From an uncultured Planctomycetales bacterium (GTDB lineage: Bacteria; 4484-113): DNA of 56,667 nucleotides. The stretch covers positions 1-56,667 of the forward strand of contig CAZKNJ010000011.1 in the NCBI GenBank assembly GCA_964554185.1, written 5' to 3'. Positions 1-54,024 of the stretch are shown here, one piece after another. The notes under the pieces were generated by a model. The model was not told the origin of the DNA, did no database searches, and saw nothing but the letters and a program-made list of their open reading frames with translations. The translations under genes and the position numbers were made by a program. Every line of letters starts with the position of its first letter. Within the stretch, counting starts at the first letter, position 1.

Positions 1-1539
1 CGTGAAGCCGCTGAACTGGCCCCAGTTGTCCTTGGCGCGGACTTTGTAGATGTAGTCCTCGCCCACAGTAAGGCCCGAGTCGTAGATCTTGCGGCCGGTC
101 GTGTCGGTAGTCCTCAGCAGCGAGAAGTCCACATCAGCCGGCCCCTGCCGCCAGACTTCGTAACCCGCAAGATAGTCCGAGGCGCTCGCCCCCCAGCTCA
201 CTTCAATGGAGTAGCTGTAGGGAATGCCTTCGTTCTCCGTGGCTATCGTGGCTGGCGTCGTCGGCGCCGCCGGGAAGAACGGCGTGTTGGCCGCCTCATT
301 GCTGGGATCGGACTCAGCCTGCGAGGTATTCACCGCAGTCGCGTAGTAGGTGTATTCAATGCCCGGGGGAAGCCAGTCGCCGTTGTTGTTGTCGGTGTAC
401 TGGAGCGGAACCGTCGCCTTCGGAATGGCCGCAACCTGGGTGAACTCGGTTTCGCCCTCGGCCTTCCGGTACAGCCGGTACTCCGCCAGATCAGGCTCGG
501 TGTTGGCGCTCCAGGTCAAGAGAATCCTGCCGGGGCCAATGGCCTCTTTGGCGATCGCTGCGAGGTTCGCCGGCGGATTGGGCACCTCCGGCTGCGCCAC
601 CGTCGCCGGGTCGCTGGGGATGCCCTCGGCGCCACCATTGTCGCCCGGCGCTACCGTCACCTCTTCCGTACCCGCCAACAACACCTCGGTGTACTCGTAC
701 TCCACCCGCGTGCTGCCAGCATCATCCGGCCGCATCACCGATAACGGCTCTCCCGGATTGCCCTCGTTCGGCAGCGGAGTCGCGTTGCCGGCCACATATA
801 CGTTGTAGCCCGCCAGGGAAGTGCCGAAGTGCACCGCTATCGGCGTCACATCCGCGATACCTATCGTCTCGTTGCCGTCCCCGTCCGCCAGGCCTACCGC
901 CGAGTTCTCGTCGGCAACCGCAGAACCAAAGTTCATGGCCAGCGGCGTGATGTCAGCAATCGCCACCGTCCCGTTGTTGTCGTAGTCGCCCACATTGCGC
1001 TCGTGCCACCGCAGAATATACGTCCCCGCCGTGGCAGTCTCAATCAACCGCAAGTCCGTGGGCTTGTTCTCACCTCCGCCGGGCGCAGTACTCACCGCTT
1101 TCGCCGCCGTATCCGCCCCGGCCTCGTACTTCACCCGCAACACCTCTCCACTCCCGCTAACTCCTTCCACCTCGTCAGCATGCACCTTGATTATCCCGCA
1201 CGGCACTTCCCCATGCCGCCCGGTCACCGCAAGGCTGATTACCTCCTCTTCCGCACCCAGGAAACCTCCGAACTTCACCTCCACCGGCCGGTATCCCTCC
1301 GGGTGCTTCAAGGTCACGTATACCGCCTTCAGCCCCTCTGCACCCTCCGCCTTCACAATAACCTCGGGTGCACTCGCGGTTCCCACCACCTCGGCCACCA
1401 GCTTGCCTCCGCCCATCAAATCAACATCCGCAAGCTCGAAGCCTCCAATGCTCAACGGCGCCGGCGCGCTCCGCACGCCACCGCCGCCGCAGGATACCGC
1501 CAGAAGGAGCATAAAGGCCATTAGTATCAGCCTTCTCAT
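1..1539 (-). CDS. Surface lipoprotein, paralog A (cohesin-like + dockerin-like + FN3 domains); 3' end runs off the window
   Basis: ATG at 1539 with AAGGAG RBS. Not in the ORF track (no stop in window). Same frame as the 3988 gene. My translation of 1-300 gives a second, diverged FN3-like domain (IEVSWGASASDYLAGYEVWR...YIYKVRAKDNWG). Confidence 0.9.
   Translation of the reverse strand, partial: MRRLILMAFMLLLAVSCGGGGVRSAPAPLSIGGFELADVDLMGGGKLVAEVVGTASAPEVIVKAEGAEGLKAVYVTLKHPEGYRPVEVKFGGFLGAEEEVISLAVTGRHGEVPCGIIKVHADEVEGVSGSGEVLRVKYEAGADTAAKAVSTAPGGGENKPTDLRLIETATAGTYILRWHERNVGDYDNNGTVAIADITPLAMNFGSAVADENSAVGLADGDGNETIGIADVTPIAVHFGTSLAGYNVYVAGNATPLPNEGNPGEPLSVMRPDDAGSTRVEYEYTEVLLAGTEEVTVAPGDNGGAEGIPSDPATVAQPEVPNPPANLAAIAKEAIGPGRILLTWSANTEPDLAEYRLYRKAEGETEFTQVAAIPKATVPLQYTDNNNGDWLPPGIEYTYYATAVNTSQAESDPSNEAANTPFFPAAPTTPATIATENEGIPYSYSIEVSWGASASDYLAGYEVWRQGPADVDFSLLRTTDTTGRKIYDSGLTVGEDYIYKVRAKDNWGQFSGFT
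555..1539. repeat. Direct repeat copy 1 (near-identical to 3004-3988, offset 2449)
   Basis: Shadow-frame ORF translations of both copies are identical. One synonymous mismatch seen (1501 vs 3950). Similarity continues with scattered mismatches down to about 262/2711. Confidence 0.95.
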
Positions 1540-1649
1540 GTTTCACTCCTTGTTGAAGTTTGTATGCGCATAAGTGCTGCGCTTACGCAGCGCGTTACGG
1601 GCTATTATACCTCAAGCAGCGGGAAGTCAGTCTACCAGCGGCGACCCGG

Positions 1650-1702: not shown

Positions 1703-3988
1703 CTAGAGCAGTTCCTCAATGTAGCCGCGCCAAGTGGATTCGTGTGATTGCACGCCGCCGTAGACCTTTCGCACTTTGCCGTCGCGGTCAATCAGGAATG
1801 TTGACGGGCGGCTGAAAGTCCCGAAGGCGGACTCGTACAGCGTTTTCACGGCTGCACCCGTGTAGAAATCCGTGAGGTCGTTGGCGGGGCTATAGCCCTG
1901 CTGGGTAATCTCGGTGACCATAGTGCTGATAGCGGGCTCGTAGGCGCCGATGTAGCAGTAGCCCTGCGACTGGTAAGAATGGTAGATGGGGATTTGCGAA
2001 GGAAACTCCTTCGAGTGCGGGAAAGTTCAGCAGTAGTCATCGAAGCTGAGGGTTATCACGCAGTGGTTATCCAGACACTGCTGGAAGGGGATGTAGGGAG
2101 CGCTCTGCTTTTTGTAGCTGGCCACAGAGAAGCTCGGTGCATACCCCAGGAAGTTGAGCGTGGTTGTACGGACACTCGTTTGGTCGTCATCGCTCGTGAC
2201 ACCGTCGTTGGCCGTCACGGTTATGTCGGCAGCGCCGCAGCCGCCGCCGGAGCACCAAGCGACCGACAGGCCGTGGTTCCCGTACGGGAAGCAGCCGGAA
2301 CTGGCGTTCCAGGTGATGGTGGCCGCCGGGTTGGTGACATCCACGGAGAAATGGGCCTCTTCGTTGGGCCCGAAGGTCGTGCCGTCAACGGTGAGCGTAA
2401 GAATCTGCACATCAACGTAGGGCGAGCAACAGGAGCAGGCATCGTTGCTGTAATCGCTCACCTGGTCGAAAGAGTCTTTGGCGCGCACCTTGTAAGTGTA
2501 GTCAACGCCCTCGGTCAGGCCGCAGTCCTTATACTCCGGGTTGGGGCCCTCGCCGATTGCGCCAATGAGCGTGAAGTCCGCCTCGCCCTCCGCCCGGCAG
2601 TAAACATCGTAGCCGCTCAAGTACTCGCCGGTGGACGCGCTCCAAGTGAGCTTGACGGTCAAGCCGTAAGGCAAGCAGTCATCCGTTGCCTCCAAGTTCG
2701 CCGGCGTTGACGGCGCCGCCGGGAAGAACGGCGTGTTGGCCGCCTCATTGCTGGGGTCGGACTCAGTTTCGGCAGTATTCACCGCAGTCGCGTAGTAGGT
2801 GTATTCAATGCCGAGGGAGAGCCAGTCGCCGTTGTTGCTGTCGGTGTATTCCAGCGGAACCGTCGCCTTCGGAATGGCCGTAACCTGGGTGAACTCGGTT
2901 TCGCCCTCGGCCTTGCGGTACAACCGGTACTCCGCCAGGTCAGGCTCGGTGTTGGCGCTCCAGCTAAGGCGAATCCTGCCGGGACCGATGGCCTGGCTGG
3001 CGTTCGCTGCGAGGTTCGCCGGCGGATTGGGCACCTCCGGCTGCGCCACCGTCGCCGGGTCGCTGGGGATGCCCTCGGCGCCACCATTGTCGCCCGGCGC
3101 TACCGTCACCTCTTCCGTACCCGCCAACAACACCTCGGTGTACTCGTACTCCACCCGCGTGCTGCCAGCATCATCCGGCCGCATCACCGATAACGGCTCT
3201 CCCGGATTGCCCTCGTTCGGCAGCGGAGTCGCGTTGCCGGCCACATATACGTTGTAGCCCGCCAGGGAAGTGCCGAAGTGCACCGCTATCGGCGTCACAT
3301 CCGCGATACCTATCGTCTCGTTGCCGTCCCCGTCCGCCAGGCCTACCGCCGAGTTCTCGTCGGCAACCGCAGAACCAAAGTTCATGGCCAGCGGCGTGAT
3401 GTCAGCAATCGCCACCGTCCCGTTGTTGTCGTAGTCGCCCACATTGCGCTCGTGCCACCGCAGAATATACGTCCCCGCCGTGGCAGTCTCAATCAACCGC
3501 AAGTCCGTGGGCTTGTTCTCACCTCCGCCGGGCGCAGTACTCACCGCTTTCGCCGCCGTATCCGCCCCGGCCTCGTACTTCACCCGCAACACCTCTCCAC
3601 TCCCGCTAACTCCTTCCACCTCGTCAGCATGCACCTTGATTATCCCGCACGGCACTTCCCCATGCCGCCCGGTCACCGCAAGGCTGATTACCTCCTCTTC
3701 CGCACCCAGGAAACCTCCGAACTTCACCTCCACCGGCCGGTATCCCTCCGGGTGCTTCAAGGTCACGTATACCGCCTTCAGCCCCTCTGCACCCTCCGCC
3801 TTCACAATAACCTCGGGTGCACTCGCGGTTCCCACCACCTCGGCCACCAGCTTGCCTCCGCCCATCAAATCAACATCCGCAAGCTCGAAGCCTCCAATGC
3901 TCAACGGCGCCGGCGCGCTCCGCACGCCACCGCCGCCGCAGGATACCGCTAGAAGGAGCATAAAGGCCATTAGTATCAGCCTTCTCAT
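1703..3988 (-). CDS. Surface lipoprotein, paralog B: cohesin-like, dockerin-like, 2x FN3, PKD/Ig-like and C-terminal thioredoxin-fold (TlpA/AhpC-TSA-like) domain with in-frame TGA (probable selenocysteine); 761 aa with readthrough
   Basis: Track ORFs 2027..3988 and 1703..1921 are in the same frame, separated only by the TGA at 2027-2029. Lipobox LLLAVSC. Paired Ca-binding repeats GDYDNNGTVAIADIT / ADGDGNETIGIADVT. Redoxin motifs APSFSV and RPSTFLIDRDGKVR lie on either side of the TGA. Confidence 0.85.
1997..2029 (-). promoter_or_regulatory. In-frame UGA plus candidate bacterial SECIS hairpin
   Basis: UGA-N13-CGAAGGA-GUU-UCCUUCG: a 7-bp stem whose apical loop G is 21 nt after the UGA. Confidence 0.75.
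3004..3988. repeat. Direct repeat copy 2 (near-identical to 555-1539)
   Basis: See copy 1. Confidence 0.95.
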
Positions 3989-4045
3989 ATCCCTCTCCTT
4001 GTTGAAGAACGAGTATCATCGGCGAAATCTATCCGCCAAGTAGCA

Positions 4046-53821: not shown

Positions 53822-53894
53822 TGGAGGTGAACGGATTCGAACCGATGACCTTCTGCGTGCAAAGCAGATGCTCTGCCAACTGAGCTACACCCCC
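53822..53894 (-). tRNA. tRNA-Ala(UGC)
   Basis: Cloverleaf with G3:U70 and anticodon loop TT-TGC-AC; CCA not encoded. Confidence 0.96.
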
Positions 53895-53950
53895 GCAGTC
53901 CTATTCTAACACACGCCGTTGAGGGATAAGCCGTGCAGAAAGCGATTAAG

Positions 53951-54024
53951 TGGGTCGTCCAGGACTCGAACCTGGGACCTCATCCTTATCAGGGATGCGC
54001 TCTAACCACCTGAGCTAACGACCC
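53951..54024 (-). tRNA. tRNA-Ile(GAU)
   Basis: Cloverleaf with anticodon arm CATCC-CT-GAT-AA-GGATG; CCA not encoded. Confidence 0.96.

Follow-up and report, generated by a model that had tools for sequence, protein, structure and literature searches.

Cohesin-dockerin pairs are among the strongest protein connectors and the most widely re-used ones in biotechnology. A cohesin is an elongated jelly-roll beta-sandwich of about nine strands, whose dockerin-binding surface is the face of the 8-3-6-5 sheet. A dockerin consists of two tandem segments of about 22 residues, each with a 12-residue EF-hand-like Ca2+ loop followed by a helix, and the usual Ca2+ ligands are acidic or amide residues at loop positions 1, 3, 5, 9, and 12. 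In cellulosomes, dockerins are attached to plant-cell-wall carbohydrate-active enzymes (CAZymes), and these are assembled on a scaffoldin with multiple cohesins and a carbohydrate-binding module (CBM). The present text concerns a minus-strand gene at positions 1703 to 3988 of contig CAZKNJ010000011.1 (assembly GCA_964554185.1, 56,667 nt, hereafter “the window”) from an uncultured Planctomycetales bacterium of the GTDB lineage 4484-113. This gene encodes a predicted lipoprotein in which a cohesin and a dockerin both lie close to the lipid anchor.

Cohesins and dockerins from outside cellulosomes have been amply documented, and proteins harboring both modules are known too. For example, Amy4 of the R. 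bromii amylosome has a cohesin and a dockerin in one protein; its cohesin binds its own dockerin as well as those of other proteins, and the protein can multimerise (PMC4611034). Such modules are also present in ANME archaea (PMC9012536, citing Peer et al., 2009), and Limihaloglobus sulfuriphilus, a bacterium of the PVC group, has one Coh2-Doc1-Coh1 protein and 13 dockerin proteins (PMC11557425).

The product of the window gene is a modular envelope lipoprotein composed of an anchor, a short tether, a cohesin, a dockerin-bearing Fn3-like domain, two Fn3 domains, a PKD-like domain, and a thioredoxin fold containing selenocysteine (Sec). Its gene and the N-terminal modules are as follows; loci outside the window are cited below by our own labels.

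1703..3988, minus strand: whole lipoprotein gene, 761 aa with the in-frame TGA at 2027-2029 read as Sec; the stop codon is TAG at 1703-1705.
2027..3988, minus strand: conventional open reading frame (ORF; P0001), 653 aa up to the TGA.
3938..3988, minus strand: signal peptide and lipobox, residues 1-17, MRRLILMAFMLLLAVS followed by Cys, as read from the sequence.
3569..3889, minus strand: cohesin module, divergent and short, residues 34-140 (structure model, Foldseek, and homology).
3029..3511, minus strand: Fn3-like beta-sandwich hosting the dockerin, residues ~160-320 (modeled secondary structure, Foldseek match to 2w1n, and conserved residues).
3266..3442, minus strand: dockerin module, residues 183-241, two Ca-loop/helix segments with a short linking helix (structure model, Foldseek, and paralogs).
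3401..3436, minus strand: Ca loop 1, DYDNNGTVAIAD, residues 185-196, predicted ligands D185, D187, N189, and D196.
3299..3334, minus strand: Ca loop 2, DGDGNETIGIAD, residues 219-230, predicted ligands D219, D221, N223, and D230.

The lipobox was sought as [LVI][ASTVI][GAS]C or as the PROSITE pattern PS51257, and MRRLILMAFMLLLAVS-C fits the latter as judged by eye. Cys17 is the predicted lipidated residue, followed by a Gly-rich tether, and the lipobox-CGG pattern is common to most of the paralogs. On this sequence evidence, the assignment of the 2027..3988 product as a putative lipoprotein holds.

The structure of the N-terminal part was modeled with AlphaFold2 (AF2) from residues 1-330 aligned with 37 homologs. 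The mean per-residue confidence (pLDDT) is 87.7 and the predicted template-modeling score (pTM) is 0.80, with pLDDT below 50 at residues 13-25. Residues 34-140 form a beta-sandwich of eight DSSP strands with block pLDDT of 90-97. In Foldseek, the best PDB match of the three-domain model is 2w1n (E 1.5e-5), a cohesin-FN3 construct of C. perfringens GH84C, and the second and third best are chains of 4fl4, the CohI9-X-DocII part of CipA. The non-cellulosomal cohesin 2xdh from A. fulgidus is aligned with a root-mean-square deviation (rmsd) of 3.0 Å over 99 columns, and the further cohesins 2vo8, 2jh2, 4ums, 4uyp, 6kgd, and 5nrm are matched with probabilities of about 1.0.

Homology points in the same direction. 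A family hidden Markov model (HMM) of this N-terminal domain matches C64:2328-2618 in the organism's own genome at E 4e-12, and that domain passes the Pfam Cohesin threshold with 36.3 bits. A single-sequence query leads to G012:C112 in a relative (E 2.4e-13), a place that scores 32 bits with PF00963, and also to the PF00963-passing places G010:C61, G001:C23, G011:C7, and G008:C2. Because the pairwise BLASTP comparison with the C64 cohesin is marginal (E 0.003 over 60 aa), the link to cohesins is established through the profile search and the relatives. A further HMM round recruits a protein on C1 with E 8.4e-7 and one on C41 with E 2e-5, the latter scoring 36-39 bits in Pfam; both have a cohesin without a dockerin, and the iterated search converges on a set that stays at 11 proteins in the own genome. 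By fold and homology, residues 34-140 are a cohesin, a divergent one that is missed by Pfam.

The second module is built from two 22-residue segments, GDYDNNGTVAIADITPLAMNFG at residues 184-205 and ADGDGNETIGIADVTPIAVHFG at residues 218-239, with the same residue at 12 of the 22 positions; in each segment, loop positions 1, 3, 5, and 12 are D/D/N/D. In the AF2 model, the helices of the two segments span residues 194-202 and 228-236, and a short helix at 214-217 lies between them. When residues 181-243 are modeled in isolation, pLDDT reaches 94.5, and all of the 27 best Foldseek matches in the PDB are dockerins, the top one being 2y3n_B with template-modeling (TM) scores of 0.75/0.78, rmsd of 1.6 Å, and 28% identity. 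A generic EF-hand or calmodulin reading of the Ca loops was rejected, as Foldseek gives calmodulin-type structures a probability of only 0.02-0.04.

Paralogous copies of the module pass the PF00404 cut-off of 22.9 bits, namely one on C116 (28 bits) and two on C60 (24.5 and 26.6 bits). In the family alignment, G184, D185, G190, D196, T198, P199, and Y245 are invariant. The 35 full-length copies in the own genome give the consensus W.YRN.GDYDQNG.V.I.DITP.A.HFG...DGSGNG.V.IADITPIA..FG....GY, in which loop 1 reads GDYDQNG.V.I.DITP.A and loop 2 reads Dg.gng.v.IaD.TpiA..Fg. Ligand positions 1, 3, 5, and 12 are conserved in both loops of these copies, together with the helix motif DITPxA..FG in both repeats. 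Residues 183-241 are thus a dockerin, with its membership given by transitive homology and by fold. Because the module is carried by 43 ORFs of the own genome, by every genome of the phylum and by 612 cluster representatives (see below), a chance match of the motif can be set aside.

The original prediction for this stretch, centered on positions 3100-3900 (residues about 30-296), had placed a cohesin-type beta-sandwich at residues ~45-140 and a dockerin, seen as a duplicated Ca-loop/helix pair, in one and the same lipoprotein. Both modules and the lipobox are borne out by the evidence above: the N-terminal domain has the cohesin fold, with a modeled sandwich at 34-140 that Foldseek matches to cohesins and an HMM link (E 4e-12) to the Pfam-positive C64 domain, and the pair has the dockerin fold (pLDDT 94.5, Foldseek matches of residues 181-243) and homology to the PF00404-passing paralogs.

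What is absent from that prediction is the nesting of the dockerin in a host domain. The dockerin is inserted between a strand at residues 173-179, with the invariant W178 at its end, and a strand at 244-249 (GYNVY, with the invariant Y245). The AF2 strands of the host are two at 164-179 and four more at 244-315, so that the dockerin interrupts a single beta-sandwich, and W178, Y245, V296, P298, G306, and S309 are conserved there in the family alignment. Hallmarks of Fn3 can be recognized in these residues, such as the Trp in strand B, the Tyr in strand C, and the V-x-P-x-D..G..G..S pattern in F-G. Because the host domain, stripped of its insert, showed no similarity to either of the downstream Fn3 domains in hhalign (probability 0.5-2%), the label “Fn3-like” is applied by topology and hallmark residues only. 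The B-C loop of Fn3 lies, in the textbook topology, at the N-terminal pole of the domain, so the dockerin plug should sit at the membrane-proximal base of the stalk beside the cohesin. No description of such an arrangement, a dockerin nested in an Fn3-like domain beside a lipid anchor, was found, and literature searches on dockerins and on UBP7 turned up nothing on this lineage.

The window protein is one member of a large set. The 97-aa dockerin module matches 45 places in the 2.18-Mb own genome, and a genome-wide count gives 43 ORFs with the nested dockerin module, most of them with a lipobox, and 11 cohesin proteins. The module begins about 80-200 residues past the lipidated Cys, and about 35 of the 43 dockerin proteins are without a cohesin of their own. 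Eight of the cohesin proteins have the cohesin followed by the Fn3/dockerin unit, and the other three are cohesin-only lipoproteins:

C64:1821-2681, plus strand: cohesin-only lipoprotein.
C1:59834-60436, minus strand: cohesin-only lipoprotein.
C41:10188-12224, minus strand: cohesin-only lipoprotein.

These three are candidate hub or anchor sockets. The C41 protein has a coiled-coil-like tail at its end, and most genomes of the phylum have Pfam-cohesin ORFs comparable in size to these, with about 265-290 aa and about 610-720 aa. At C1:56562-60436 (minus strand), the cohesin lipoprotein gene is directly upstream of, and overlaps, the gene of a 1096-aa secreted protein with an HEYGH zinc-protease motif and a single N-proximal dockerin-like loop (PF00404, 13 bits); the two could be a socket-cargo gene pair.

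Furthermore, the set is conserved across the lineage. All 24 genomes of the GTDB phylum hold both modules; per genome, the dockerin is present in 5-89 copies and Pfam recognizes 2-10 cohesins. In a search of 1.84 billion cluster representatives, 1751 proteins match the dockerin module at E<=1e-3 and 612 at E<=1e-10, and in nearly all of them the N-terminus is 50-280 residues away from the module. Among species genomes, the highest-ranking loci belong to a handful of metagenome-assembled genomes labelled Planctomycetales, “bacterium”, and once “UBP7”; one homolog carries the label Lentisphaerae. In most proteins of the cohesin-dockerin set, both modules are overlooked by standard Pfam annotation.

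The families carried along with the modules are not those of a cellulosome. In a Pfam tally of 41 dockerin/cohesin proteins, PKD is counted 15 times, PQQ propeller eight, fn3 five, CarboxypepD_reg four, and multihaem cytochrome once, and no glycoside hydrolase family is among the 25 families listed, out of 34 in all. The original prediction had likewise reported no glycoside hydrolase context. The own-genome cohesin searches yielded no protein with more than two cohesin-like modules. A cellulosome reading was rejected on these two results, as the families listed include no glycoside hydrolase cargo and the searches gave no multi-cohesin scaffoldin.

There are further variations in the N-terminal part. 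Most members of the family have, in place of the cohesin, a conserved helical segment (A.A.L.AL..P.GVD...F..LK..L) between the lipobox and the Fn3/dockerin unit, as in P0022, P0026, P0030, P0036, and P0042 and in own-genome copies on C95, C70, and C116. Because orthologs of the same protein have either the helical segment or the cohesin, the N-terminal module appears to be swappable. The dockerin modules also come in two types: cohesin-preceded ones are marked by W-x-E-x-N and GDYDNxG, and the helix-preceded majority by W-H-Y-R-N and GDYDQNG. These types could mirror lineage or differing socket specificities.

A second copy of the arrangement is found next to the gene itself, in a tandem paralog (paralog A; the lipoprotein of the 2027..3988 gene is paralog B):

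1..1539, minus strand: paralog A, truncated by the contig end, with its cohesin at 1120-1440 and its dockerin at 817-993.

Over their first ~320 aa, paralogs A and B do not differ in either protein or DNA. Window positions 601-1545 and 3050-3994, about 950 nt from the signal peptide through the cohesin to the Fn3/dockerin unit, have 100% DNA identity, and the identity falls off in the direction of the 3′ cargo ends. A sister species (G002:C17) has this tandem pair as well, with equal match scores for the two copies, and because of this, gene conversion rather than an assembly artefact is argued for.

Taken together, we regard the lipoprotein as part of a lineage-wide, non-cellulosomal cohesin-dockerin system in which it would act as an adaptor of a lipoprotein network, with a probability of roughly 0.6. 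With Ca2+ in both loops, its dockerin would plug into the cohesin of another lipoprotein, and its own cohesin would take the dockerin of another family member. In this adaptor role, stalked cargo such as redox domains, PQQ propellers, PKD arrays, and a multihaem cytochrome could be placed side by side at the membrane surface; chaining of the lipoprotein with itself or with paralog A would be one possible outcome of the network, not all of it. We infer Ca2+ binding, cohesin-dockerin binding, its specificity, and the cellular face on which it would take place.

Several points weigh against this adaptor reading. At E<=10, neither the whole lipoprotein nor any of four sub-fragments has a match to PF00963 or PF00404. 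With about 107 aa versus about 140, the cohesin is short, and its target-normalised TM scores in Foldseek are just 0.44-0.54. In the dockerin, loop position 9 is occupied by A193 and G227, not by the usual Asn or Asp, and searches of PDB sequences with phmmer and the family profile reach dockerins at E 0.38-1.2, which is not significant, although the place (residues 183-242) is right. The predicted partners are themselves lipid-anchored, so a scaffold would be unneeded to hold them on the cell. In addition, the pTM of 0.80 for the three-domain model suggests a fixed packing, and the cohesin face could be occupied in cis.

Other readings must be compared on the same evidence. In the original prediction, the lipoprotein could polymerise head-to-tail with itself and paralog A, here read as a dedicated lattice for the two redox cargos. 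It is plausible that such chains form, as the two modules reside in one chain, the tandem pair is retained in the sister species (G002:C17), and the Amy4 cohesin sets a precedent by binding its own dockerin (PMC4611034); moreover, because A and B are identical over the first ~320 aa, any self-binding would also link A to B. However, the dockerin helix motif is common to about 43 proteins and the cohesin type to 11, so there is no sign of a private specificity, and the orthologs P0022 and P0026 keep the dockerin with the helical segment in place of the cohesin. The lattice therefore has a precedent but seems too narrow, and as the whole account it is unlikely. Because about 43 dockerin lipoproteins stand beside 11 cohesin proteins, of which three are cohesin-only, the better fit is a network spanning the genome's lipoproteins, with plugs far outnumbering sockets, and this is more likely than a closed chain of self and paralog.

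The same numbers bear on the idea that the cohesin binds or packs on the dockerin of its own chain, forming a rigid membrane-proximal stalk base without assembly in trans through these modules. A linker of only about 20 residues separates the cohesin from the host, the dockerin would lie in the host B-C loop at the pole facing the cohesin if the textbook Fn3 topology applies, and a pTM of 0.80 suggests that the three domains are held in a defined orientation to one another. Nevertheless, a cohesin to close on is missing from about 35 of the 43 dockerin proteins, and these and the three cohesin-only lipoproteins call for partners in trans, which makes a purely intramolecular role improbable. 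We are similarly doubtful that the modules do not pair at all, with the dockerin-like insert serving as a Ca2+-dependent structural or ligand-binding element (for stalk stabilisation, envelope glycans, or lipid head groups) and the cohesin-like domains as spacers or sugar-binding sandwiches. For many non-cellulosomal dockerins no partner has been demonstrated, both modules are divergent and under Pfam thresholds in this lipoprotein, and all of the putative partners are already membrane-anchored. On the other hand, each of the 24 genomes has both module types, in a proportion of roughly 10 to 1, conservation reaches past the Ca loops into both helices of both repeats, and the fold is specifically that of a dockerin, with calmodulin at a probability of 0.02-0.04. 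The adaptor network thus remains our preferred reading.

Downstream of the Fn3/dockerin unit, the lipoprotein continues into a stalk and a cargo domain:

Residues ~322-415: second Fn3-like domain, part of the stalk.
2477..2707, minus strand: Fn3 domain, residues 428-504, part of the stalk (Pfam fn3, 35.6 bits; cut-off 25).
2168..2401, minus strand: PKD/Ig-like domain, residues 530-607 (Pfam PKD, 13-16 bits, under the cut-off of 23.5).
1706..2164, minus strand: thioredoxin-fold (AhpC/TSA-like) cargo, residues ~609-761 (38% identity to P0014 residues 605-755, E 1e-22).

The frame after the TGA at 2027-2029 continues for 107 codons to the TAG, which makes the thioredoxin/AhpC-TSA fold complete, and the P0014 alignment spans the TGA, with U654 placed on the first Cys of the CxxC of the homologs. 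The aligned region of P0014 (residues 605-755) is Pfam AhpC-TSA with 35.4 bits, and the read-through C-terminal domain of the lipoprotein has no direct match in Pfam. About 17 nt 3′ of the TGA there is a hairpin, CGAAGGA-GUU-UCCUUCG, and the own genome has both a tRNA-Sec (C7:31307-31398) and SelB (on C90). The database homologs P0007, P0022, P0011, and P0016 end exactly at the position of the TGA. The redox cargo that had been proposed for the 2027..3988 product is thus found as a Sec-containing thioredoxin-fold domain aligned to the AhpC-TSA of P0014. On C90 (747-4554, plus strand), selB is followed by a 392-aa ORF on the same strand (C90:3379-4554) with two to three degenerate copies of the dockerin module.

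A search of the lipoprotein against NCBIfam gave no match. The antisense ORFs at 3278..3952 and 3444..4043 (plus strand) were taken to be high-GC shadow frames. Near the end of the window, tRNA-Ile(GAT) and tRNA-Ala(TGC) genes adjoin at 53822-54024 on the minus strand; rRNA operons usually have this pair as their spacer, and a 16S gene is therefore probably located just past 54024.

The role of cohesins and dockerins outside cellulosomes is a long-standing question, and the present 2.2-Mb genome, with its roughly 43 plugs and 11 sockets, offers a compact test system that is conserved throughout a little-studied phylum and has no carbohydrate-active enzymes in the cargo families listed. If binding were confirmed, the system would provide new orthogonal connector pairs and an example of lipoproteins networked at the membrane of a diderm bacterium. 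A bolder and rather unlikely extension is that the nested dockerins and the cohesins constitute a membrane-proximal, Ca2+-dependent two-dimensional network of dozens of lipoproteins, an “envelope skeleton” that would order redox modules (Sec thioredoxin-fold domains and a multihaem cytochrome) and binding propellers. If this were true, cohesin-dockerin pairing would be a principle by which an entire phylum generally builds its envelope, not a device for enzyme display.

Among known systems, the unit resembles the type II X-module-dockerin dyads of cellulosomal scaffoldins (4fl4, 3kcp, 2b59, and 5g5d), as in CohI9-X-DocII of C. thermocellum CipA, where a cohesin is followed by an Ig-like beta-sandwich closely tied to a dockerin. 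As in these dyads, whose dockerins occupy most of the top Foldseek ranks of the isolated dockerin, its role would be that of an adaptor with a socket and a plug. Unlike these dyads, where the dockerin comes after the sandwich and the unit is at the C-terminus, the dockerin here lies between two strands of the sandwich and the unit is at the N-terminal, lipid-anchored end; and in contrast to CipA-type scaffoldins, there is no CBM, no anchoring through SLH (S-layer homology) modules or sortase, and no glycoside hydrolase. A non-cellulosomal cohesin followed by Fn3 is also seen in C. perfringens GH84C (NagJ; 2w1n), and the FIVAR-Doc structure of NagH (2ozn) is related through its chain 2ozn_B, which matches the isolated dockerin in Foldseek. 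NagJ and NagH are, however, secreted glycosidases of a Gram-positive bacterium with the cohesin and the dockerin on separate proteins, whereas here the two are in one lipoprotein and the dockerin is nested.

R. bromii Amy4 is alike in having a cohesin and a dockerin in a single protein; self-binding has been demonstrated for Amy4, while the modules here are known from sequence and models. Amy4 differs in that it is a Firmicute GH13 amylase, its dockerin is C-terminal, and its attachment to the cell is via a sortase-anchored scaffoldin. The archaeal (2xdh, ANME) and L. sulfuriphilus sets, as far as the relevant passages of their papers describe them, have in common with the present one that the modules occur in non-cellulolytic organisms on non-CAZyme cargo. 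Against the figures in those passages, the present genome has far more copies for its size (43 in 2.18 Mb), and the mostly lipobox-type anchoring and the N-proximal, nested dockerin do not appear in the same passages. What sets this system apart from the known ones is the nested dockerin, its N-proximal place adjacent to the anchor, predicted partners that are mostly lipid-anchored, the copy number, and the conservation throughout a phylum.

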